A stretch of DNA of 64,000 nucleotides from Patescibacteria group bacterium (GTDB taxonomy: Bacteria > Patescibacteriota > Patescibacteriia > UBA10025): positions 3,801 through 67,800 of the forward strand of contig JBAZCI010000002.1 in assembly GCA_041671025.1 (NCBI GenBank). The letters run 5' to 3'. Below are positions 13,754-56,368 of this stretch, piece after piece. The notes under the pieces are model-generated. The model had not been told where the DNA came from. It worked only from the letters and a program-made list of their open reading frames with translations, and made no database searches. The number at the start of each line of letters is the position of its first letter. Position 1 is the stretch's first letter. Both the position numbers and the translations under genes were made by a program.

Positions 13754-13916
13754 GAATTTTAGCTAATATTAAACAAAAAAGATAAAAAAGAGATCGATCC
13801 GCAGGCAAGGTTGCGCTGACTGGATCGACTCTCACCCTATCATATATGCCGGGAGAGTGCAAGGCTTTACACCGATAAATGCTGGCGAATATGCGAAAGA
13901 TGGTATACTGCTGTAT

Positions 13917-15149
13917 ATGCATTCCACTCTTTTCATCTTCGGTGCACACCCTGCCCTGTCTTGCGCGGAACTGCGCAAGGTTATTCCTGAACCCTTGCGG
14001 CTTTTGAGCGTCGAAACCGCATTAGTGCAATCACAGAACCCGCCTGATGCTGTTGCACTGCAAACGCGCCTCGGAGGAACGATCAAAATTGCCCACATCA
14101 TCGAATCATTCCCTGCCGCTGAGCTCGAAAAAAAACTGACGACATCAAACATGCTCGCCAAATATTTCGCGCAAAGTACCGAAAAAATAATTTTCGGATT
14201 CAGTTGCTACGGGAAAATGCCGAGCACGGTCATAAACCGCGTTCGCAAAATTGGGTTTACAATCAAAAAGGGACTACAGCAGGATGAATTTTCAGCCAGG
14301 TTCCTTTTTGATCCGTCCGGGCATCTGCCGACAGCCACAGTGGCTAAAAGCAATATGATGCAAAGGGGCGCCGAAATCATCATCGTAGGCACGGAGGATG
14401 GCACGGTATACACCGCAACCACTGAAACCGTACAGGACTTCGAATCCTACAGCCACCGAGACTACGGACGCCCTGTTCGTGACACAAAAAGCGGGACACT
14501 CCCCCCAAAGCTCGCACAGATCATGATTAATTTTGCACAGGCTCCTACACATGCCGTTCTGTTGGATCCGTTTTGCGGATCAGGAACCGTCCTGCAGGAA
14601 GCGATCCAGCTCGGATACGCAAACGTAGTCGGTTCTGATATCAGCTCTAAAGCAATTGCGGATTCACGGACAAATCTGGAGTGGTACCTGAAAGCGTACG
14701 AGAATTCTCCCGCCCGAGAACTCCCCCGGCTGATTCAGCAGGACATCCGATCCCTGCCCGCCATACTCGAAGAACTGTCAGTGGATACGATTGTCACCGA
14801 ATCGTACCTGGGTCCGTCTCGTTCACGTTTTACATCCGCAGCTGTCCTGCAAAAAACAGTCGAGGAACTTACCAAATTATACCGGGATACATTTTCTGCG
14901 TTCGCTAAAATCCTCCGACCGAAGGGAACTATCGTTATCGCACTTCCTTTTTTCCTCCACGGCGGCCACAAAACACGGTTTGATATCATGACACTCGTGA
15001 GTATAAAAGTTTTTACACTCGAACAACTTCTCGATGCATCCGATGCGAACAAGTTGCTCGGTGTAGACCGACCGCAATACTCGCTTGAATACGCCCGATC
15101 CGACCAGCGCGTCGGACGGCAAATATTCATACTCAAGAAAAAAGGCTGA
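13917..15149 (+). CDS. SAM-dependent RNA/DNA methylase, UPF0020/Trm11-RlmL-like
   Basis: Motif I LDPFCGSGTVLQEA and the downstream TESYLGP motif. Start placed at MHSTLFIFGAHPALS, with TATACT 7 nt upstream and no SD. Confidence 0.75.
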   Translation: MHSTLFIFGAHPALSCAELRKVIPEPLRLLSVETALVQSQNPPDAVALQTRLGGTIKIAHIIESFPAAELEKKLTTSNMLAKYFAQSTEKIIFGFSCYGKMPSTVINRVRKIGFTIKKGLQQDEFSARFLFDPSGHLPTATVAKSNMMQRGAEIIIVGTEDGTVYTATTETVQDFESYSHRDYGRPVRDTKSGTLPPKLAQIMINFAQAPTHAVLLDPFCGSGTVLQEAIQLGYANVVGSDISSKAIADSRTNLEWYLKAYENSPARELPRLIQQDIRSLPAILEELSVDTIVTESYLGPSRSRFTSAAVLQKTVEELTKLYRDTFSAFAKILRPKGTIVIALPFFLHGGHKTRFDIMTLVSIKVFTLEQLLDASDANKLLGVDRPQYSLEYARSDQRVGRQIFILKKKG

Positions 15150-26236: not shown

Positions 26237-27772
26237 CTAATTATCCAATTCTTTCACCATATACGTATTCTCCTGACGATACCCCATCTTACGGTAATAC
26301 TCACGTACACCGACGCCCGAAATGACCGACAGCTTTGCCCGTCCGTTTTCTGAAGCGATACGTTCGGCTTCTTTCATCAATTGTTTGCCAAACCCGATAT
26401 GCTGGACGGCCGAATCGTCCGAACCGACAGGTATCATCTGACCGTACGTGTGCAATTCCCTGACAAACGCCGTAGTTTCATCCGGCGGCAGATGGAGTCG
26501 GACAAACGCAAATATCGTTGATTCGTCTTCTGTTTCCATGCTGATAAAATATTCGGTGCCGCCAGAAGACGGATATGAACGCACTTTTATAACCGCCGTG
26601 GCGGCATCTACATCCTTGCTCCTTGACTCTCTGCACCGTATGCACCGACATGATATGCCCTGCTCCTGAAGCATCTGACGAAGGTTTGTTACGAGATTGC
26701 CGTCGATAATGTCATTACCCGGAATATCGCGGATAAGCCGGTTGATACGCACATACGGCGGAATGCGGCGTTTAATTTCAATCAGCAGGTTGCGCAAAGT
26801 TTCATCGTCATACGGCACATACTTCCCGGCCTTCCACCAATGATAAAGGATGGAGCTTTGAACAACGACAGTCGGATAGATTTTTAACATGTCCGGCTGA
26901 AACCGTTCATCGGTAAAGAGGGCGTCAAATGTTTCCAGATCGCTTGCGGGCGTAGCACCCGGCAGACCGGGCATAATATGAAACGTAAATTTGAATCCGA
27001 ACTTTTTTAACAGCCGGGTCGCATGCATCATACTCTCAACGGTGTCATCGCGCTTGATCAGATCGAGCACCGCCTGATCGAGCGTCTGGACGCCGATTTG
27101 CACGTGGGTACACCCGAGCAGGCGCATCCGCCATAATTCTTCTTCGGTGACATAATCGGGACGGGTTTCAAGCGTCACACCGATAATCCGCCGTTCTGCT
27201 GTTTCATTCATTTTATGCGCTTCTCCGAGCGTCGCGCTGTCGACACCGTTTGCCGCATCAAAGCACCGTTTAATAAACCATTCTTGATATGCTTTTTCAT
27301 AAAATGACCATGTCCCTCCCAAGACAATCAGTTCGATCTTGTCGGCAGTGTGCCCATTGCCTTCCAAAGTTTCGATCCGGCTTTTTGTCTGCTTATACGG
27401 ATCAAACGCGTTACCGAGCGCTCGTGCAGCGGCCGGCTCGGAGGCAATATAGCTTTTTGGCATGTTGCGTTCGGTCGGACAGTACACGCATCTGCCCGGA
27501 CACGGATACGGTTTTGTAAGCACGGTAATAGGTGCAACACCGGAGAGCGTACGAATGGACCGCTTACGTAAAAGCCGCACCAGCTTCTCATCCCCGGTTG
27601 TCCCGGTGTCTTTGAGGAATTGCCGATACTCACCCAACAGGGTAGTATGGGAGCTGATCGGCCTGCCGTATTTCTTTGCTAACACGCGCTGAAGCCGATG
27701 GAGTTCATCCATCGTTTGCGGCCGCGCCTCATGCAAATCGCGCGCTAATTCCAGAGTGTTTACTTGATCCAT
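26237..27772 (-). CDS. elp3: Elp3-family radical SAM / GNAT acetyltransferase (tRNA wobble uridine cm5U-type modification enzyme)
   Basis: Radical-SAM cluster region YPCPGRCVYCPTERNMPKSYI, an Elp3-type central domain and a C-terminal GNAT (VQHIGFGKQLMKEAERIA...YYRKMGYRQENTYMVKEL). Start placed at MDQVNTLELARDL (511 aa), because the longer track ORF adds a non-conserved 65-aa extension. Confidence 0.85.
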   Translation of the reverse strand: MDQVNTLELARDLHEARPQTMDELHRLQRVLAKKYGRPISSHTTLLGEYRQFLKDTGTTGDEKLVRLLRKRSIRTLSGVAPITVLTKPYPCPGRCVYCPTERNMPKSYIASEPAAARALGNAFDPYKQTKSRIETLEGNGHTADKIELIVLGGTWSFYEKAYQEWFIKRCFDAANGVDSATLGEAHKMNETAERRIIGVTLETRPDYVTEEELWRMRLLGCTHVQIGVQTLDQAVLDLIKRDDTVESMMHATRLLKKFGFKFTFHIMPGLPGATPASDLETFDALFTDERFQPDMLKIYPTVVVQSSILYHWWKAGKYVPYDDETLRNLLIEIKRRIPPYVRINRLIRDIPGNDIIDGNLVTNLRQMLQEQGISCRCIRCRESRSKDVDAATAVIKVRSYPSSGGTEYFISMETEDESTIFAFVRLHLPPDETTAFVRELHTYGQMIPVGSDDSAVQHIGFGKQLMKEAERIASENGRAKLSVISGVGVREYYRKMGYRQENTYMVKELDN

Positions 27773-28511
27773 GGATACACAATACGCTGATAAAATATTG
27801 AACGAGGTTGCCCGCGGATACGATGCCCTCGCAGGTTCATTTGATGAGAGCCGTACCGCCCTGTGGGAAGAGCAGAAATTTTTCCTGCCGTATGTCTCCG
27901 AACACGCCAATATCCTGGATGTCGGTTGCGGAAACGGCCGATTGCTGAAGCTTTTTGAAGGCCGCACGCTCTCCTATACGGGTACAGATAATAATGCCAA
28001 GCTTGTCCAAAAGGCACAAGAGTACGCAAAGCAGTACCCCGCAATCACGACTCAATTTGTTATTGCCGATATGCGGTCGCTCCCCTTGTCGGATCGCACA
28101 TTTGACCGGGTATTTTGCATCGCGGCTCTTCATCATATCCCATCGCACACATACCAACTCGCCGCACTCAAGGAAATGCACCGCGTCCTCCAGCCCGGAG
28201 GGATATTGTGTATGACCAACTGGAATCTCCACATGCAGGAGCGCTACGTGAAAAAGCGGCAAAAGCTTGCCGTACAGCATCCCGACTGGTTTGACGGACT
28301 TTCAGACCGGGATTTCCTCATTTCCTGGAAATGGCACATCGGAAATCAGACTGTGTACCGATACTACTACTCATTTGCTGAAGATGAACTTGCCCAGTTG
28401 CTCGCTGAGGCAGGATTTAAAACTATTCGCCAGGAATTTTCAGAAGGCGGAGTGAGCTGGAGTAAAGAACGTACTAAGCGAAACGTTGTTACAGTCGCGC
28501 AAAAGAATTAG
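27771..28511 (+). CDS. Trm9/ALKBH8-type class I SAM-dependent methyltransferase
   Basis: ILDVGCGNGRLL (motif I), FDRVFCIAALHHIPS...LQPGGILCMTNW, DFLISWKW, VYRYYYSFAEDELAQLL and a C-terminal VVTVAQK. As far as I recall the yeast Trm9 sequence, these blocks are collinear with it. Confidence 0.75.
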   Translation: MDTQYADKILNEVARGYDALAGSFDESRTALWEEQKFFLPYVSEHANILDVGCGNGRLLKLFEGRTLSYTGTDNNAKLVQKAQEYAKQYPAITTQFVIADMRSLPLSDRTFDRVFCIAALHHIPSHTYQLAALKEMHRVLQPGGILCMTNWNLHMQERYVKKRQKLAVQHPDWFDGLSDRDFLISWKWHIGNQTVYRYYYSFAEDELAQLLAEAGFKTIRQEFSEGGVSWSKERTKRNVVTVAQKN

Positions 28512-28530: not shown

Positions 28531-29517
28531 TCAGACTGAGAGTATTTCAGATTTTTTTTCCGTACCATACAGCTCCGGGAAAAAAGTCATCAACCCGGAG
28601 GGAATAACCAGAAACGCAAGCGGGAGCAAGATGCGCGTTTCATACGGCCATCCCATGATAAAATTTAGCACGGTATACAGAACAATATACGGTGCGGCCC
28701 TCCGTAAAAAGAGAGGTTTTTGGCGTAGTTGTATAAACGGTACAATCCAAAAAACGCCGAAAAGCGGAATAAAATATATAAAGAAATTTGTCACCGGATT
28801 AAAACTCAATACGTTTTTCAATGTAGATATGTTGTACGTGAGCTGCCAGAGAGATGAATTGGTTCCGTCAAAAAACATATGCCGGGACAGGTAAAAAGCG
28901 CCCGCCCACACCGCGACAAGCACGCAAGTTTCTAACACTGTTCTTACCACTCGCTGTTTACTCCATTGATACAGCGCATACATTGGAATAATGAAGGCGA
29001 TCGTCTCTTTGGCAAACGTACCTGCAAATAGGACGGGAAGCGTCCACCATACTTTTTTTTCCCGTATCAGCCACACCCCGGCAAGAAAAAAAGGGTACAG
29101 TACGACATCCGATTCCTGCAGATACGGCAAAAAAGTGATAGGCGTAAAAGCCGCCAACAGGACGACACCGAATGCAGCACCGGCATATCTGAACCATTTC
29201 AATAAAAAGAGGTGGAACATGCAGAACAGGATAAATGTAAATACAAAGCGTACCATGAGATACGCGACATATATCGGCTGATTAAACGGTCCGTCAAACG
29301 CTTCCGCGAGCCACGGGGCGAGCAAGCGAAATTGATTCGAAGTATCCGATTGTCCCGCCATAATCTGCGCGTGCCAATCCTCCCATCTTTCAGGGATTTG
29401 TTCCGCATGCGTAAAGAAATAGACTCCTGTAACCGACCAGGCCAGGAAAAAATATAACAGTACGATGAGGATAATTTTTTTGGTTTCACCCATATATTCC
29501 TGATACCAGTGTAGCAT
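28531..29517 (-). CDS. Hypothetical polytopic membrane protein (about 9 TM)
   Basis: 328 aa, hydrophobic throughout. It resembles large membrane glycosyltransferase or O-antigen-polymerase-like proteins only in topology. Start uncertain (alternative MGETKK at 29493). Confidence 0.6.
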   Translation of the reverse strand: MLHWYQEYMGETKKIILIVLLYFFLAWSVTGVYFFTHAEQIPERWEDWHAQIMAGQSDTSNQFRLLAPWLAEAFDGPFNQPIYVAYLMVRFVFTFILFCMFHLFLLKWFRYAGAAFGVVLLAAFTPITFLPYLQESDVVLYPFFLAGVWLIREKKVWWTLPVLFAGTFAKETIAFIIPMYALYQWSKQRVVRTVLETCVLVAVWAGAFYLSRHMFFDGTNSSLWQLTYNISTLKNVLSFNPVTNFFIYFIPLFGVFWIVPFIQLRQKPLFLRRAAPYIVLYTVLNFIMGWPYETRILLPLAFLVIPSGLMTFFPELYGTEKKSEILSV

Positions 29518-36786: not shown

Positions 36787-37473
36787 TTATGAAGGCCTGG
36801 GTTCAACTAGAATACTACGGGTGATTTTCTGCTCCGCCCCGCGCGGTTTGCGGGAAATAATGACAATAGTATTCAACCCTTCGGTCAGTTCAAGTGTTTC
36901 CGAAAAATTGCCGGAGCTGTCAGGGACAACCTCTTCGTCATTTATAAAGATTGTGGCCTCAGGCTCCGTCGTGCCCTCGACCAATATTGACGGTTCTGTG
37001 ATCCGTATGTTTTCCGCCGGTGACCTCAGAATAAGTTCGGGCGGGGCGGTAATACGTCGCGCTTCTACGCCCAGATATACTACGATTGCCAGCACGACTA
37101 GAATTATGCCAGTTCGTTTTATTGTCTGCGGTGTGATAATTGCACGGGGAATTCGTTTTTCATTCTCCAGGGAAGCCCGCGCCCGCTTATCATGCTGAGA
37201 TTGAAACACTTTGCGCTCCTGATCATATGCATAGATAACGGTCTCTGCATTGACGTCAAGATACACGGCCAACTGTCGCAGAAAATTGCGCACATACACG
37301 TCGCTCGGCAAATCCAAATACCGGCTCTCTTCGATTGCCTTGAGATGCTTTAATTGAACGTGTATCGAGTCGGCTACGGTTTCCAATTCTACGCCCCGTT
37401 CTATACGCACTTTCTGGAGCCGTTCGCCGAGCGTCCCGCGTATGCGAAGACCACGGGCGGTAAAATCACTCAT
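36787..37473 (-). CDS. Helix-turn-helix (Cro/C1-type) membrane protein, RodZ-like
   Basis: N-terminal HTH LGERLQKVRIERGVELETVADSIHVQLKHLKAIE, one TM (IILVVLAIVVYLGV) and an extracytoplasmic C-terminal domain. Start at MSDFTARG overlaps the ftsK stop by 8 nt. Confidence 0.7.
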   Translation of the reverse strand: MSDFTARGLRIRGTLGERLQKVRIERGVELETVADSIHVQLKHLKAIEESRYLDLPSDVYVRNFLRQLAVYLDVNAETVIYAYDQERKVFQSQHDKRARASLENEKRIPRAIITPQTIKRTGIILVVLAIVVYLGVEARRITAPPELILRSPAENIRITEPSILVEGTTEPEATIFINDEEVVPDSSGNFSETLELTEGLNTIVIISRKPRGAEQKITRSILVEPRPS

Positions 37474-39711
37474 ATTTTTGCTCGGACGTATCTTCTGTCT
37501 CGTCCCCCTCTTCTTCAGGAGCATCCGCGACGGCCTCATCGGTATCTACGGGAACATCCAAACCGGACGGAGTTGACCGTACAAGAATTTCTCTGGGCTT
37601 GGCTCCGTCACCGGGACCGATGACCCCCTGTTCTTCCAGCAAATCAAGCAGGCGTGCCGCACGAGCATACCCCACGCGCAACCGCCGTTGTAAAAGCGAC
37701 GCCGAGGCCTTGCCCGCCTTGATAACAAGATCCTTTGCCTGACTTAACAATTCGTCGTCCCCAAGGTCTTCAAAATTGCCGCTCAACGTTTCATCCACGA
37801 TAAGTTTCTCAACCACCTCAGGATGGTAATCCGGTTTGCCTTGCTCGCGCAAAAAGTTGGTGACGCGTTCAATCTCATCATTGCTCACAAACACGCCCTG
37901 CAGACGGCGGGGCTTGGATAGCTGAGCGGTAACGAACAGCATGTCGCCCTTGCCGAGCAATTTTTCTGCGCCGCTCGTATCAAGAATCGTGCGGGAATCA
38001 ACGACAGAAGCGACGCTGAATGCAATCCGTGAAGTAATATTTGCCTTGATCAGTCCGGTAATAACGTCAACGGAGGGACGTTGGGTTGCAACAACCAGAT
38101 GAATCCCCACCGCGCGGGCCATTTGCGCAAGCCGGATAATAGCTGACTCTACCTCATGCATTGCGACGGCCATCAGGTCGGCAAGCTCATCAATGACGAC
38201 AACAATATACGGAAGCTGATCGCCGATCGGCGCATGATTATAATCGGCAATATTCCGCTGACCATGCTTCGAAAGCAGGTCAAAACGCCGATCCATTTCA
38301 GCGACCACCCAGCGCAGAGCATTAATCGTTTTGTTGACATTGGTGACCACCGGGGTAATCAAATGAGGAATATCATTGTAAACAGGCATTTCTACCCGTT
38401 TTGGATCGACGAGTATCAGCTTTAACTGATCGGGAGAATTTTGATACAAAAGACTCAACAGAATGGAATTGATGCAAACAGACTTTCCCGATCCGGTAGC
38501 GCCGGCGATAAGCAAATGCGGCATCGAATCGAGATCTGCGAGCCACGGTACCCCGGAAACAGATTCGTTTTTCGTTTTTTGAATTCACTGCTTTCAAGCA
38601 TCTGCCGTAAGCGGACGGTCGCGATAGATTTGTTTGGAACTTCGATACCGACAAGCGACTTGCCGGGAATGGGCGCCTCAATACGGATTGGGTGTGCGGC
38701 AAGTGCAAGCGCGAGATCATTGGACAACGTCGTGAGTTGGGCAAGCTTCACTCCTTCTGCGGGTTTCAACGTATACTGTGTTACCGTCGGCCCGACATTT
38801 ACTTCGCTCATCTCTACCGGTATGCCAAAGTTGGCGAGCGTTTTGTGTATCCGCTCCTTATTCGCCTCTATATCACCGCTTATCGGCTTCGTATTATTTT
38901 GATCCAATAAATCGGTCGGGACAGGAATTTTCTTCTTCACACGCTTAACTTCCGGAAACATCTCCTGCTGAGCGCTGCCCGATGCTGCTTGTTGAGAGGT
39001 TGCTCCCACGGTCAATGGCGCAATCTGCGACTTCGTGGATTCTTCCAGCGGCTGTCGGCTGAATGAAGAATCACCCGAGTCTTCCTCATATCCTTTACGT
39101 GTATCAAGGTTTGTTCTTATTTTCCCAAAGAAATCCCTTACCCGTCCGCCCAATCGTTGCACAATAGTACCGTGCTGCATAAGCGACGTAAGCGACATAT
39201 CAAATGAGAGAAGGAGAGAAATAATCAGCAAGCCAAAAAGGACAATCCCGGTTGCCAATCCGCCCATGATTTTTTGCAACGGATACGAAAGCGAGAGACC
39301 GAGATACCCCCCGCCGCGCGATTCTCCGATGACATCCGTCGCCTGATCAAGAGGAACAAAAAGATGGAAGAAACCCGTTAATGCAATGATAAAGAGGAGC
39401 ATTCCCAAGTAATGTGAAAATCGGAGTTTATATTTTTCCGGCTTCATTAAGACATACCCCAGGAAAATCATTACTGCGGGAGCGATAAGAATCGGGATGC
39501 CAAATAATGTATGCAATCCTGAATTAATGTTCTGACCGACTCCACCCGCCAAATCGAACATGCTCAAGAGCGCAAGTGCGGCCAACATGAATAACACGAC
39601 TACGACGATCCCGTGCTTTGTTTCTGTACGAAGACGTTGCGGCTCCTTTTGGGGAACCTGTTCTCCTCTTTCAGGTCTGCGATGCGTTCTTGGTGTTTGG
39701 ATAACAGCCAT
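37466..39711 (-). pseudogene. ftsK: DNA translocase FtsK/SpoIIIE, interrupted by an apparent frameshift into two overlapping ORFs (39711..38455 and 38524..37466)
   Basis: The N-terminal ORF has 4-5 TM segments, a linker and the alpha domain (NVGPTVTQYTLKPAEGVK). The C-terminal ORF starts MPHLLIAGATGSGKSV (Walker A) and has the DELADLM motif and a gamma winged helix (LLQRRLRVGYARAARLLDLLEE). The frames differ by one nucleotide. Confidence 0.8.
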
Positions 39712-52807: not shown

Positions 52808-53962
52808 TTACCCCTTCTTCAACACGTCCACCTTGTCCAGCTTCTCCCAGGGGAACTCGACGTCGGTCCGGCCGAAGTGACCGTAGGCCGCTGTCTTTTC
52901 ATAGATCGGCTGTTTGAGATTCAACTGTGAAATAATATCAGCCGGCTTGATCGGAAAATGCTTACGGACCAAGTCTTCAATGTCACCGTTTTCAAGTGTA
53001 CCGGTACCAAATGTATTAACCATGATAGATACCGGTTCTGCTACGCCGATCGCATACGCCAATTGAACCTCGCATCGTTTTGCCAAACCTGCGGCAACGA
53101 TGTTCTTGGCAATATACCGCGCGGCATATGACGCGCTTCGATCAACCTTCGTCACGTCTTTACCGGAGAAGCACCCGCCGCCGTGTGCGCCGACACCGCC
53201 GTATGTATCAACAATAATTTTGCGTCCGGTAAGCCCCGTGTCGCCGGGCGGCCCGCCAATGACGAAGCGTCCCGTTGCATTGATGAAAAATTTAATCCGG
53301 TCCGTATACCAATCACCAAGCACGGGTTTGATCACATGTTCTTTTATGTCCGCGCGGAGCTTTTCCATTTCAACATTTTCCGAATGGTGAGCGGCAATCA
53401 CCACTGTCTCTACGCTATGCGGCTTGTCATCTACATATTCAACGGTTACCTGTGATTTGCCGTCCGGTCGCAGATACGGAAGGGTGCCGTTTTTTCGGAC
53501 CTCTGCCAGTTTGTGCGTCAATCGATGCGCGAGTGATATGGTCAGCGGCATGTATTCCGGCGTTTCATCGCACGCATACCCGAACATCAACCCCTGATCG
53601 CCTGCGCCCTGCTCCTTGCGTTCACCGGTGCCGTCCACGCCCTGGGCGATATCCGGCGACTGCTCATGAATCGCGCTGATCACTCCGACGTCTGAATAAC
53701 AAAAGCCGTATTCGGGCTTGTCGTATCCGATTTTTTGGATGGTCCGACGCACGATTGCCTGAATATCGACGTACCCGGTTGTTTTCACCTCACCGCCGAT
53801 AACCACAAGACCGGTAGTAACGAATGTCTCAACCGCTGAATGGCAGTCTTTGTCTTGCTTAAGCAATTCATCATACACCGCGTCAGAAATCTGATCGCAT
53901 ACTTTATCCGGATGCCCTTCGGTCACGGATTCTGATGTGAATAGTCGTTTGCGCTGTGGCAT
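52808..53962 (-). CDS. metK: S-adenosylmethionine synthase
   Basis: [32 protein letters not shown] and [17 protein letters not shown]. Confidence 0.96.
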
Positions 53963-53984: not shown

Positions 53985-54136
53985 AAACTTCTTACTGGTG
54001 ATAAGAGGGCGCGAACACATTTCCTTCTTATCTTTTCCCCGCCATAAGCGGGAATGGATGTGGCACCACTCGCATTTCTGCGCGGTTGCCGGGAGGTCAT
54101 AGGGCCAGTTCCCTCGCTCCGCTCACGATAAGATAT
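53985..54136 (-). promoter_or_regulatory. SAM-I (S-box) riboswitch in the metK leader
   Basis: The minus strand reads AUCUUAUCGUGAGCGGAGCGAGGGAACUGGCCCUAUGACCUCCCGGCAACC...GGUGCCACAUCC...AAAGAUAAGAAG. P1 is CUUAUC/GAUAAG, and the conserved GAGGGA, CUGGCCC, AUGA, CCGGCAACC and GGUGCCA blocks appear in canonical order. Downstream, CCCUCUUAUC can pair alternatively with the 3' half of P1, followed by a U7 tract. Confidence 0.9.
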
Positions 54137-54248
54137 TAAGTTGTTAATATCAGGATAGCAAAATAAGCGCGGAAGTCAACTACATGCTTTTGTGAGAAAC
54201 CGAATTTTACGGTTTCCAGTTTTTCGTAGATAGCAGCTTACTCTTATT

Positions 54249-54974
54249 TTATTTAAGTACAATTGTCCCCTCACCTTCAAAAGCAATGGATATTTCTTCA
54301 ATTACTCCAAAGCGATTTGAGGAGACAAAACCGCCAATAAAAGAATCGCCAACAATATTAAGTCTAGTAAGCCAGTTATCAGAATAACTTTTATTACTAT
54401 CATTGTAGGGAATCGAGGTAAAGCTAACATTGCTTAAATCGAATAAATATTGCGTATAACCTTCTTCTGATGGTGTGCTAATAAGTGAGTTTGGCCTGAA
54501 TAAATGCCCGCCTTTATTCCCCAAATAAATATAAACAGATTCATTTTGTGCAATTGTCCCTATTTCACTTGATGTACCCGCGGCCGTCTTAATATACAAA
54601 TAGCCGTTAGAAATTTTACCTGTCGAGGCTAAAACAAATGAGTTATTTTGGAGGAATTCTAGGGCAATTCGATTATTTTCTTCTTGATCGTTAACTGTAA
54701 ACTGTGGTGAAATTATTCGTTTTTCATTGACTGTTATAAATTTCCCTTCCCTTTTTAACTGGGTAAATTTATCGAAGGCCGTGGGTTGCGTAATAAGATT
54801 AATGTTATTTAGATCAATAGCATTAATATTAATCGGGACACCGGAATTTATATTTGAATTTGCAGCATCAGGCTTTGTATTATTTACAAGGAATACAGCT
54901 AAAAATGTACTCACCACCGCAACAACAACTAAGATAGCGTAGCCAATCAATGATAATTTATTTTGTTCGTTCAT
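54249..54974 (-). CDS. Hypothetical membrane-anchored extracytoplasmic protein (AT-rich island gene 3)
   Basis: Start placed at MNEQNKLSLIGYAILVVVAVVSTFLAVFLV. Asn/Ile/Ser-rich. No family recognised. Confidence 0.6.
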   Translation of the reverse strand: MNEQNKLSLIGYAILVVVAVVSTFLAVFLVNNTKPDAANSNINSGVPININAIDLNNINLITQPTAFDKFTQLKREGKFITVNEKRIISPQFTVNDQEENNRIALEFLQNNSFVLASTGKISNGYLYIKTAAGTSSEIGTIAQNESVYIYLGNKGGHLFRPNSLISTPSEEGYTQYLFDLSNVSFTSIPYNDSNKSYSDNWLTRLNIVGDSFIGGFVSSNRFGVIEEISIAFEGEGTIVLK

Positions 54975-55290
54975 ATTCTTTTTCAAATTCTGGTAAGAAG
55001 ACTTTATAAAATAGTAAGCCAAATAAAGTTCCAATAATGAGCACCAGTAGATAATGAAAATGTTTTGGAAATTTTTGCCATATTTTGAAGTACTTTTTAA
55101 AGCCTCCAGATAATTCAATTAGAAGCAGCGAACTCGGTATGAAAAAAACGTTAAAAAGTACAGCAATAATAAATACTAAAAAACTTGTTTTAACGGTAAC
55201 AAACAGAAAAACAGTGAATATTACGAATCCATACAGTAATACGAAGCTTAAGATGGCAATTTTACTATTTTGTTTTAAAAAGTCAAACAC
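54958..55290 (-). CDS. Hypothetical small membrane protein, 3 TM (AT-rich island gene 2)
   Basis: 110 aa. Overlaps the next gene's start by 17 nt. Confidence 0.55.
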   Translation of the reverse strand: MFDFLKQNSKIAILSFVLLYGFVIFTVFLFVTVKTSFLVFIIAVLFNVFFIPSSLLLIELSGGFKKYFKIWQKFPKHFHYLLVLIIGTLFGLLFYKVFLPEFEKEYERTK

Positions 55291-55307
55291 CTTGGCGGTT
55301 TGTTACT

Positions 55308-56075
55308 TTATTGTTTCGACCAAGTACCACATCCATGAGAAGTAAAACCTCTATCGGATGACGCAATTGTTATGATTGCGGGGTCACTTGTGTTTTCGTT
55401 CGTAATGATTTCATCGATTGAACCGCCAAAACCTGACAGCCGTGCATAATAGCAGGAGTCACCGCCAGAGCTTTTATAAGTTCCGCCCTGAATATCGGTG
55501 CCTAATATGTATGTTCCATCACTAAATGTCGCCTGGCTATCCAAAATTGTTGAAAGATCCTGAGTCCAGATTCCACAATTGCGCGACTGAAAGCCCTTAT
55601 CATTTACATCAACTGTTACTATAGCTGGGGCACCGGCATTCTCATTCATAATTATTTCGTCGATTGTCCCGCCAAACCCGCTTAAACGAGCAAAATAACA
55701 CCCCGGTGATGATACGCGTTGTCTATAAGTTCCAGGCTGGATATCAGCTCCAACTACATGGCTCCCATCACTAAAGTGGGGCATCGAGGGGTCGCCAGTC
55801 CGCATTCTTTCTTGAGCATCTTGCTGCGTCTTTTGTTCTGCATTCAATTCAGAATTAGTTGCTTGATTACTCGATACGTAATTTGTATTTGAAGGTGACT
55901 TATTAACTGCACTACTAATTATTCCAGCCAGAAAAAGAAAGATAATTATTGTCCAAATCGGATGACGAATAAACCAATTTCGAAGGTCACTATGACAATT
56001 TGGGCATTTAGACGCTTTTGGATCAATTTGTGTTTTGCATCGTGGACAAGGTTTCGCTTTAGTTGTGTCGCTCAT
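55308..56075 (-). CDS. Zinc-ribbon / TM / tandem-duplicated extracellular domain protein (AT-rich island gene 1)
   Basis: Start at MSDTTKAKPCPRCKTQIDPKASKCPNCHS (CxxC...CxxC), then one TM. A module of about 75 aa occurs twice: FSDG(S/T)xxxGxDIQxGTY...C(Y)(F/Y)ARLSGFGG(T/S)IDEIIxNEN...PAI(V/I)T...D(K/R)GFxSxxCGxW. Confidence 0.65.
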   Translation of the reverse strand: MSDTTKAKPCPRCKTQIDPKASKCPNCHSDLRNWFIRHPIWTIIIFLFLAGIISSAVNKSPSNTNYVSSNQATNSELNAEQKTQQDAQERMRTGDPSMPHFSDGSHVVGADIQPGTYRQRVSSPGCYFARLSGFGGTIDEIIMNENAGAPAIVTVDVNDKGFQSRNCGIWTQDLSTILDSQATFSDGTYILGTDIQGGTYKSSGGDSCYYARLSGFGGSIDEIITNENTSDPAIITIASSDRGFTSHGCGTWSKQ

Positions 56076-56296
56076 AAAAATTAGTTTACTAAAATAAATA
56101 TATAGCTTGTTATAAATCTTCACAATCCTTTTTCTGCACTATATACATCCTCTTCTGTAGTTCACCAAAAAAGTAGATACCCTCCAGTGAATAATTGCTA
56201 TGTGCCTCCAGAGACCCCGCTGCGGGTTACTTTTACATTATAGAACGAAATTAGTAAAAAGGTACTTATACCTATCTAACCTGGGTGTATATATAG

Positions 56297-56368
56297 TGCC
56301 CTCGACAGGAGTTGAACCTGTGTCCCAGGCTTCGGAGGCCTGTACACTATCCACTGTGCTACGAGGGC
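56297..56368 (-). tRNA. tRNA-Arg (anticodon CCG)
   Basis: The minus strand reads GCCCTCGTAGCACAGTGGATAGTGTACAGGCCTCCGAAGCCTGGGACACAGGTTCAACTCCTGTCGAGGGCA. The acceptor stem is a perfect 7 bp, the anticodon loop is CTCCGAA, and the T-arm is ACAGG-TTCAACT-CCTGT. Confidence 0.9.

Follow-up and report, generated by a model that had tools for sequence, protein, structure and literature searches.

A 64,000-nucleotide stretch of contig JBAZCI010000002.1 (hereafter the window), from a Patescibacteria group bacterium, carries two divergent genes with overlapping starts, one coding for Elp3 and the other for a methyltransferase of the Trm9 type. We consider it likely that the two proteins constitute a functional module leading to 5-methoxycarbonylmethyluridine at the wobble position (mcm5U34) of tRNAs. 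Both proteins belong to their respective families, their catalytic residues are intact, and the pair is a conserved unit of the genomes of Patescibacteria, or Candidate Phyla Radiation (CPR). An earlier note, written from the letters of the window, had taken the linkage of the two genes as a sign of an mcm5U-type module, and this functional link is now backed by the finding that the pair is kept in dozens of species and amid varied genomic surroundings.

In the proposed scheme, the pair would act in two steps on the wobble uridine (U34) of tRNAs. Elp3, working alone as it does in archaea, would use its radical-SAM domain to cleave S-adenosylmethionine (SAM) and generate a 5'-deoxyadenosyl radical, and its KAT domain would supply an acetyl or acetate unit from acetyl-CoA, thereby producing a carboxymethyl group at C5 of U34 (5-carboxymethyluridine, cm5U). 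The Trm9-like enzyme would then methyl-esterify the carboxyl group of cm5U with SAM to yield mcm5U34, by analogy with Trm9 of yeast and Haloferax. A separate thiolase could possibly convert this product further into the 2-thiolated derivative mcm5s2U.

The two genes are adjacent and divergent, as the earlier note had described them. The Elp3 gene (26237..27772, minus strand) codes for a protein of 511 aa with Radical_SAM, Radical_SAM_C and C-terminal GNAT/KAT domains, preceded by an N-terminal extension of ~69 aa. The gene of the Trm9-like SAM-dependent methyltransferase (27771..28511, plus strand) has 246 codons plus a stop. In the mechanical list of open reading frames (ORFs), the Elp3-like ORF, which stops at 26237, extends to a GTG at 27967 (576 aa). 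We set its start at the ATG at 27772 because similarity to relatives begins there; the resulting 511 aa equal the length of the called gene in L001, the closest long relative (76% identity). Both proteins of the pair start with M-D. The host is a CPR bacterium using the standard genetic code, given the bacterial gene content of the window and the named relatives of the methyltransferase, which are Peregrinibacteria or other Patescibacteria. Elsewhere the window codes for RpoB, RpoC, RecA, FtsK, UvrB, UvrC, RuvA, EF-P and ribosomal protein S6, as well as for YchF, SHMT, FolD, a Mur ligase, FemAB and MetK.

On the evidence of its sequence, the first protein is confirmed as a complete Elp3 with intact catalytic motifs. 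It matches the NCBIfam ELP3 model TIGR01211 with 540.9 bits (cutoff 350, E 2.8e-162), residues 20-509 aligning to positions 13-522 of the 522 of the model, and Pfam assigns Radical_SAM, Radical_SAM_C and GNAT domains to it, the last at residues 407-500. Searches against the PDB returned the Elp3 of Methanocaldococcus infernus (MinElp3; 6iaz, E 5.6e-122), that of Dehalococcoides mccartyi (DmcElp3; 5l7j, E 1.6e-119) and eukaryotic Elp3 structures (E 1e-89 to 1e-98). The radical-SAM cysteines and the KAT residues, whose loss the earlier note had named as evidence against its radical SAM plus GNAT assignment, are both kept. The radical-SAM [4Fe-4S] motif CPGRCVYC (27479..27502, minus strand) presents C91, C95 and C98 in the spacing CX3CX2C, and these cysteines and their spacing are invariant in an alignment of 69 Elp3 proteins from related loci (69/69). 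The surrounding Fe-S loop, PCPGRCVYCPTERNMPKSY, aligns without gaps to that of DmcElp3, and a SAM-binding motif of the GGT type is present as LGGTW. In the KAT domain, the acetyl-CoA motif QHIGFG (26387..26404, minus strand) aligns to QHMGYG of MinElp3, and the Q, the H and both G of QHxGxG are likewise invariant in all 69 proteins. A further cysteine cluster, CRCIRC (C375, C377 and C380; 26633..26650, minus strand), lies in the linker between the two domains and is kept in 65 of the 69. The translations of the three motifs for which coordinates are given were checked.

By analogy with characterised archaeal, bacterial and eukaryotic homologues, the window protein would be a cm5U34 synthase. 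Stand-alone archaeal Elp3 makes cm5U in vitro (PMC7663514), and bacterial, archaeal and eukaryotic Elp3 proteins hydrolyse acetyl-CoA only when triggered by tRNA, and not by histone or tubulin peptides; DmcElp3 shows this response to tRNA as well (PMC6367351). For archaeal and eukaryotic Elp3, the N-terminal region is reported to be important in the binding of tRNA, and the weak activity of DmcElp3 has been attributed to its short version of this region (PMC6367351, PMC7663514). The alignment pairs residue 2 of DmcElp3 with residue 70 of the window protein, so that the N-terminal extension of the latter is absent from DmcElp3.

The second protein contains all three peptide blocks that the earlier note had regarded as specific to Trm9, namely DFLISWKW at residue 181, YRYYYSFAEDELA at residue 196 and VVTVAQK at residue 239. 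Its identity to fungal Trm9 proteins is only ~24-29%, and profile methods carry the assignment. When the single sequence was searched against the PDB, Yarrowia lipolytica Trm9 (YlTrm9) ranked sixth and PH0226 stood higher, the Trm9 alignment being the longest. A family profile built from 17 homologues (alignment A1) and searched against 177,635 PDB sequences reversed this order and placed YlTrm9 (5cm2_Z) first with 97.3 bits (E 7.4e-27), the next match scoring 70.7, and the alignment to YlTrm9 extended through the C-terminal DxxxxW and RYYH blocks. An hhalign comparison of A1 with ten fungal Trm9 sequences (A2) gave a probability of 99.96 and an E value of 3.9e-39 over 203 columns, from end to end. 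Reciprocally, a hidden Markov model (HMM) of fungal Trm9 gave 73.6 bits for the window protein and a median of 92 bits for 84 relatives (family range 74-118), as against 12-24 bits for seven UbiE-like or other class I methyltransferases taken from the first search. The AlphaFold model of the protein has a mean confidence (pLDDT) of 90.6, and in a Foldseek search 5cm2_Z came second (E 1.3e-15) with the highest target-normalised TM-score (0.81), although many class I methyltransferases scored similarly and the fold search separates them poorly.

The residues on which Trm9 activity depends provide a finer test of the assignment. In yeast Trm9, the R29A, D72A, H116A, W145A, W168A, R241A, Y243A and N271A mutants are zymocin-resistant and either inactive or strongly impaired, and D72A abolishes SAM binding; a model groups the eight residues, with Y18 and H115, about cm5U, near its carboxylate and its uracil ring (Letoquart et al. 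2015, PMC4678810). When aligned jointly with fungal Trm9, the window protein shows equivalents of all eight, as R28 (27852-27854), D73 (27987-27989), H122, W151 (28221-28223), W186, R197, Y199 and N238 (28482-28484), in the order of the yeast residues and all on the plus strand. Y17 (27819-27821) corresponds to Y18, and the pair H121-H122 (28131..28136) to yeast H115/H116 and to YlTrm9 H126/H127. W186 belongs to the C-terminal block DFLISW, and R197 and Y199 to the block RYY, both within 28311..28367. Seven of the eight essential residues are kept in at least 89% of the 85 relatives examined at ~85 loci, and the ten equivalents are 81-100% conserved across these bacterial relatives except at the Y243 position; H122 is found in 81/85. 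The SAM-binding motif I DVGCGNG (residues 50-56; 27918..27938) and the acidic D73, whose translation was checked, are invariant in 85/85 relatives and in fungal Trm9. Relative to fungal Trm9, the window protein bears an extra insertion of ~11 residues after W151.

Taken together, the profile searches, the hhalign comparison, the reciprocal HMM and the essential residues support grouping the methyltransferase with Trm9 and not with generic UbiE-type enzymes, as the earlier note had proposed; in that comparison UbiE-like enzymes were included, and SmtA (CmoM) was not compared directly. We would file the protein as a distinct bacterial Trm9-like subfamily rather than as part of a canonical Trm9-Trm112 holoenzyme. 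Most records of these proteins are labelled "class I SAM-dependent methyltransferase" or "UbiE", and the automated annotation of the JGI already names a few family members TRM9 or ALKBH8. The Trm9-type assignment is thus implicit in databases, but without discussion.

The linkage of the two genes reaches far beyond the window. A species-level scan of GTDB, with one genome per species, returned at least 475 relatives of the methyltransferase, and the 80 best of these, which are not a random sample, were searched for Elp3 by tblastn with the window protein. Almost all of the 80 carry labels of Patescibacteria classes (Uhr-, Magasanik-, Kuenen-, Kerfeld-, Falkow-, Komeili-, Portnoy- and Buchananbacteria, Gracilibacteria, Peribacteria and Paceibacterota). 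Elp3 is divergent and immediately adjacent to the methyltransferase in 64 of the 75 informative loci, lies within a few kb in another arrangement in 5, and is absent despite sufficient upstream flank in 6; in 5 more loci the contig is too short to tell. The pairing persists while the proteins themselves diverge, the methyltransferases of these loci being only 30-39% and the Elp3 proteins 41-58% identical to those of the window. It is also found in two still more distant homologues (23-26% identity), both from metagenome-assembled genomes (MAGs), one of them labelled Myxococcota, where a Radical_SAM plus Radical_SAM_C protein of 595-618 aa, 36-38% identical to the window Elp3, stands head to head with the methyltransferase. 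The remaining genes around these two pairs are wholly different, with ClpB, DNA ligase and SpoU beside the first and RecQ and a nuclease beside the second.

In the 85 loci, ORFs with a length of at least 45 aa were clustered over a region reaching from ~5 kb before the methyltransferase start to 4.5 kb past it. Elp3 was the sole widely conserved neighbour family (72/85 loci), and the next family reached 24; no third gene conserved beside the pair emerged from this clustering. The recurrent small families, a ~88-aa beta-barrel protein, a LOG-like protein and a NUDIX protein, did not exceed 24 loci each. The methyltransferase family is large, since an exhaustive profile search at E <=1e-30 collected 2773 clusters at 50% identity. 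The earlier view of bacterial Elp3 as rare and patchy therefore does not hold in this lineage, in which the pair is common. Some contigs with a CPR-type pair bear the names Pacearchaeota, Pirellulales or "uncultured Gammaproteobacteria" (L032, L035, L013/L018/L036/L045 and others); these are short MAG contigs, and the names probably stem from mistakes in binning or labelling and do not indicate the true hosts.

In the window, no intergenic DNA separates the two genes. Their ATG starts overlap by 2 nt in the tetranucleotide CATG (27770-27773), at the heart of a perfect 10-bp palindrome, ATCCATGGAT (27767..27776). Among 63 loci with complete ORFs, the median start-to-start spacing is 4 bp, and 51 of the 63 have a spacing of at most 50 bp. 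The CATG overlap (spacing -2) occurs in the window and 15 further loci, with L003, L011, L012, L014 and L016 included among the overlapping or abutting junctions, and abutting CATATG starts occur in 7, so that starts overlap or abut in 23/63, the window included. With no space outside the coding region of the partner, each gene must have its promoter and Shine-Dalgarno signals within the other. Among the N-terminal codons of Elp3, 17-25 nt ahead of the methyltransferase ATG, A/T-rich motifs such as TTTAATTAT are found repeatedly. A promoter and terminator scan round the junction found no sigma-70 consensus near 27770, and its overall counts were not above those of shuffled controls. From this architecture we infer embedded bidirectional promoters that would give rise to leaderless or very short-leader mRNAs; transcripts at the junction may be leaderless or mutually antisense.

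Several observations weigh against the formation of mcm5U34 by this pair. We know of no report of mcm5U from bacteria. A 2020 review found no direct evidence of xcm5U34 derivatives even in Dehalococcoides (PMC7663514). In Haloferax volcanii, deletion of trm9 or trm112 removes mcm5U, cm5U does not accumulate and an unidentified isobaric species appears (PMC6144793); since cm5U fails to accumulate upon trm9 deletion, the end products of the pathway can differ between organisms. The position equivalent to Y243 is variable within the bacterial family, with a tyrosine in 52/85 relatives (61%). Curated libraries recognize the methyltransferase only as a generic class I domain: UbiE-, BioC- and CmoB-like models match the Rossmann half alone and far under their cutoffs (TIGR01934 with 64.5 bits for a cutoff of 158, UbiE equivalogs with 36-60 for 216-378, and the CmoB model TIGR00452 with 32.5 for 275), no CmoA or CmoM (SmtA) model being present in the output. 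This result is no argument against Trm9, because neither Pfam nor NCBIfam gave any Trm9-specific match. The first rank in the Foldseek search went to an uncharacterised methyltransferase of Methanosarcina (3sm3), and the fold does not set Trm9 apart. In one clade, the methyltransferase is associated with a glycosyltransferase family that has no obvious tRNA connection.

The characterised Trm9 enzymes of yeast, human and Haloferax all need Trm112. In the Yarrowia complex, Trm112 buries a hydrophobic surface of Trm9 (V59, F78, V102, A110, P112 and F116), and Trm9 is insoluble when expressed alone because this surface is then no longer covered. In the bacterial family, the core positions of this interface lose their hydrophobicity while the active-site columns stay conserved. 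The position of YlTrm9 V59 is hydrophobic in 100% of 119 fungal Trm9 sequences and in 9% of the 85 bacterial ones, where it is mostly K or R (N47 in the window protein). At the position of F78 the figures are 96% and 1%, the bacterial residue being mostly D, E or K (S68 in the window), and at the position of V102 they are 93% and 53% (V97 in the window). A search by tblastn with short queries from E. coli YcaR and yeast Trm112, together with a scan for zinc-ribbon and GIP motifs, is a weak one, but it yielded no Trm112-like ORF for the window or for ~1.19 Mb of DNA flanking the loci (best E 0.7), and Pfam likewise returned nothing for the small ORFs beside Elp3 in L003 and L005. Charged residues occupy the former Trm112-binding patch, and within this search the pair has no linked Trm112 gene; the bacterial Trm9-like enzyme is therefore probably a stand-alone enzyme that works without Trm112. 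The earlier remark that no Trm112-like partner is visible next to the genes stands, within the reach of the search described above; as a missing component it is probably not a gap, for the binding surface itself appears to have been lost.

The variation among known pathways leaves room for the same two enzymes to act on U34 of tRNAs with an end product other than mcm5U. Most of the cm5U could for instance be converted to 5-carbamoylmethyluridine (ncm5U) or another derivative, or a different carboxylated side chain could be esterified. The H. volcanii deletions, which show that branches of the pathway vary between organisms, and the variable Y243 position both point in this direction. Nevertheless, the residues modelled on the carboxylate of cm5U and on the uracil ring (the equivalents of R29, H115/H116, R241, N271 and W145) are conserved, and Elp3, the sole known cm5U synthase, accompanies the methyltransferase in nearly all cases; we regard a different end product as unlikely.

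Two other explanations remove one of the enzymes from tRNA, and both are less probable still. The methyltransferase could act on a carboxyl group outside tRNA, for example in a cell-envelope glycan pathway, in which case the adjacency of Elp3 would reflect genome compaction or a shared need for SAM. The generic library matches would suit such an enzyme, as would the glycosyltransferase association mentioned above: a WecG/TagA/CpsF domain (PF03808) is fused to the methyltransferase in four independent cluster representatives (P0335, P0358, P0382 and P0392), and a WecG-like ORF lies directly downstream (~150-250 bp) in 9 loci (L028, L040, L058, L059, L064, L065, L066, L076 and L084), named Gracilibacteria, Peribacteria, Peregrinibacteria or unclassified Patescibacteria. 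However, this link is limited to 9 of the ~85 loci, 7 of which also have Elp3 upstream, and no WecG-like gene occurs in the window, whereas the pairing with Elp3 is far broader and independent of context, and conservation extends to those Trm9 residues for which recognition of the uracil has been proposed; a substrate other than tRNA is thus very improbable. Alternatively, Elp3 could be a protein (lysine) acetyltransferase or another radical-SAM enzyme not acting on tRNA, next to a methyltransferase by coincidence. In the past Elp3 was taken for a histone acetyltransferase, a name that its PDB entries still bear. Yet the acetyl-CoA hydrolysis of characterised Elp3 proteins needs tRNA and is not elicited by histone or tubulin peptides (PMC6367351), and coincidence would not be expected to place Elp3 head to head with a Trm9-type enzyme in 64 of 75 loci. 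We give this last explanation hardly any credence.

Since the pair, with its full-length Elp3, is conserved in numerous classes of a vast radiation of bacteria, several questions become testable. The existence of mcm5U in Bacteria is one of them, as is that of a Trm112-free Trm9 which, if true, would provide a single soluble chain as a model for this enzyme, whose counterpart in humans, the orthologue ALKBH8, is linked to disease. It could likewise be asked whether bacteria with small genomes decode split codon boxes in the archaeal and eukaryotic way, and whether the Elp3/Trm9 pathway is of ancient origin or owes its presence to an exchange between CPR bacteria and archaea. Proteins now labelled as generic methyltransferases or as UbiE would gain an annotation. 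More tentatively, CPR bacteria as a group may rely on the Elp3 route, otherwise known from archaea and eukaryotes, and a Trm112-independent Trm9 for xcm5U34, possibly in replacement of MnmE/MnmG, mcm5U would be a widespread bacterial modification, and the pair would be expressed from a bidirectional unit with overlapping starts, perhaps through leaderless or mutually antisense transcripts; we put forward this broad proposal as a possibility and lean somewhat against it in its entirety. If the expression from a bidirectional overlapping-start unit proved true, it would represent an unusual mode of co-regulation.

Other features of the window deserve mention. A SAM riboswitch (RF00162, 74 bits; 54025-54134, minus strand) lies directly upstream of metK, the SAM synthetase gene (52808-53962, minus strand), an ordinary arrangement that is relevant here because both enzymes of the pair use SAM. 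A 430-aa protein encoded at 13857-15149 (plus strand) has a Trm11/TrmG10-like methyltransferase domain (TIGR01177, 69 bits, under the cutoff), and its top PDB match is an archaeal tRNA (G10-N2)-dimethyltransferase (6zxw, E 2.4e-7); it represents a second tRNA methyltransferase of archaeal/eukaryotic type in the window, and its eukaryotic counterpart is also a client of Trm112. Immediately beyond the methyltransferase, positions 28531-29517 (minus strand) code for a multi-pass membrane protein of 328 aa without family match, followed by a bactofilin/DUF8173-like gene. This membrane gene looks like a lineage-specific insertion because the methyltransferase and the bactofilin/DUF8173-like gene are directly adjacent in L001, L003 and L005. 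FtsK is encoded by two overlapping ORFs in different frames (37466-38524 and 38455-39711, both on the minus strand), with the 4TM and alpha domains in one and the motor and gamma domains in the other, and the split may correspond to a frameshift, an assembly error or a truly split gene. The GC content falls to 0.376 at 54001-56000, compared with ~0.48 elsewhere, in a stretch that includes ORFs without Pfam match (54249-55118 and 55308-56123, minus strand) and adjoins a tRNA-Arg gene (56296-56368); it may be a small acquired island.

Among known systems, those of archaea resemble the pair in several respects. In Haloferax and Sulfolobus, as in the window, Elp3 occurs without Elp1, 2, 4, 5 and 6 partners, and archaeal Elp3 has a long N-terminal region like that of the window protein. 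The Trm9 orthologue of H. volcanii (HVO_1032), together with Trm112, has been demonstrated to produce mcm5U in a cm5U-dependent manner, Trm112 being needed in vivo (PMC6144793), and clustering of the Elp3 and Trm9 genes was noted in Sulfolobus solfataricus (Grosjean et al. 2008, PMC2584109). The window differs in that its host is a bacterium, in the head-to-head orientation of its genes with overlapping starts, and in the Fe-S loop of its Elp3, which is of the bacterial type CX3CX2C, whereas that of MinElp3 reads CX4CX2C with a 5-residue insert. In addition, H. volcanii Trm9 depends on Trm112, while the bacterial family has neither the hydrophobic interface nor a linked Trm112 gene. Eukaryotes bring the same two catalytic activities together in Elongator (Elp1-6) and in Trm9-Trm112 or ALKBH8-TRMT112, and the Trm9 active site and the radical-SAM and KAT motifs of Elp3 are kept in the window. 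In contrast, no Elongator accessory subunits and no Trm112 were seen for the window pair, and the CRCIRC cysteine cluster of its Elp3 is lacking in eukaryotic Elp3 (PMC6367351).

The closest bacterial comparison is the Elp3 of D. mccartyi (5l7j, 6ia6), which shares with the window protein the ungapped Fe-S loop PCPG[KR]C[IV]YCPT. DmcElp3 differs by the lack of the N-terminal extension and by its weak activity and weak tRNA binding (PMC7663514). No Trm9 partner is mentioned for DmcElp3 in the literature covered, which did not include the primary structure paper, and the covered literature on bacterial Elp3, part of which calls it rare, describes no downstream enzyme and no detected product. A 2020 review from a laboratory working on Elp3 structure places bacterial Elp3 in one clade, Dehalococcoides (PMC7663514), and a 2026 paper states only that "numerous bacteria" keep it. 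Our literature search returned no paper joining Elp3 with "Candidate Phyla Radiation", and none of the top matches on names of CPR lineages contained Elp3.

The routes better known from bacteria, MnmE/MnmG for 5-carboxymethylaminomethyluridine (cmnm5U) and CmoA/CmoB/CmoM for 5-methoxycarbonylmethoxyuridine (mcmo5U), have the same target, C5 of U34, but their enzyme families and chemistry are unrelated to those of the window pair. CmoM also methyl-esterifies a carboxyl group on the wobble uridine. No MnmE, MnmG, MnmA, Cmo or Ncs6 gene was found among the ORFs of at least 150 aa in the 64-kb window. Both enzyme families and the pathway that they serve are already known; what is new is the bacterial lineage in which they occur, the breadth of their conserved linkage, the lost Trm112 interface with the apparent independence that it suggests, and the overlapping-start architecture of the pair.

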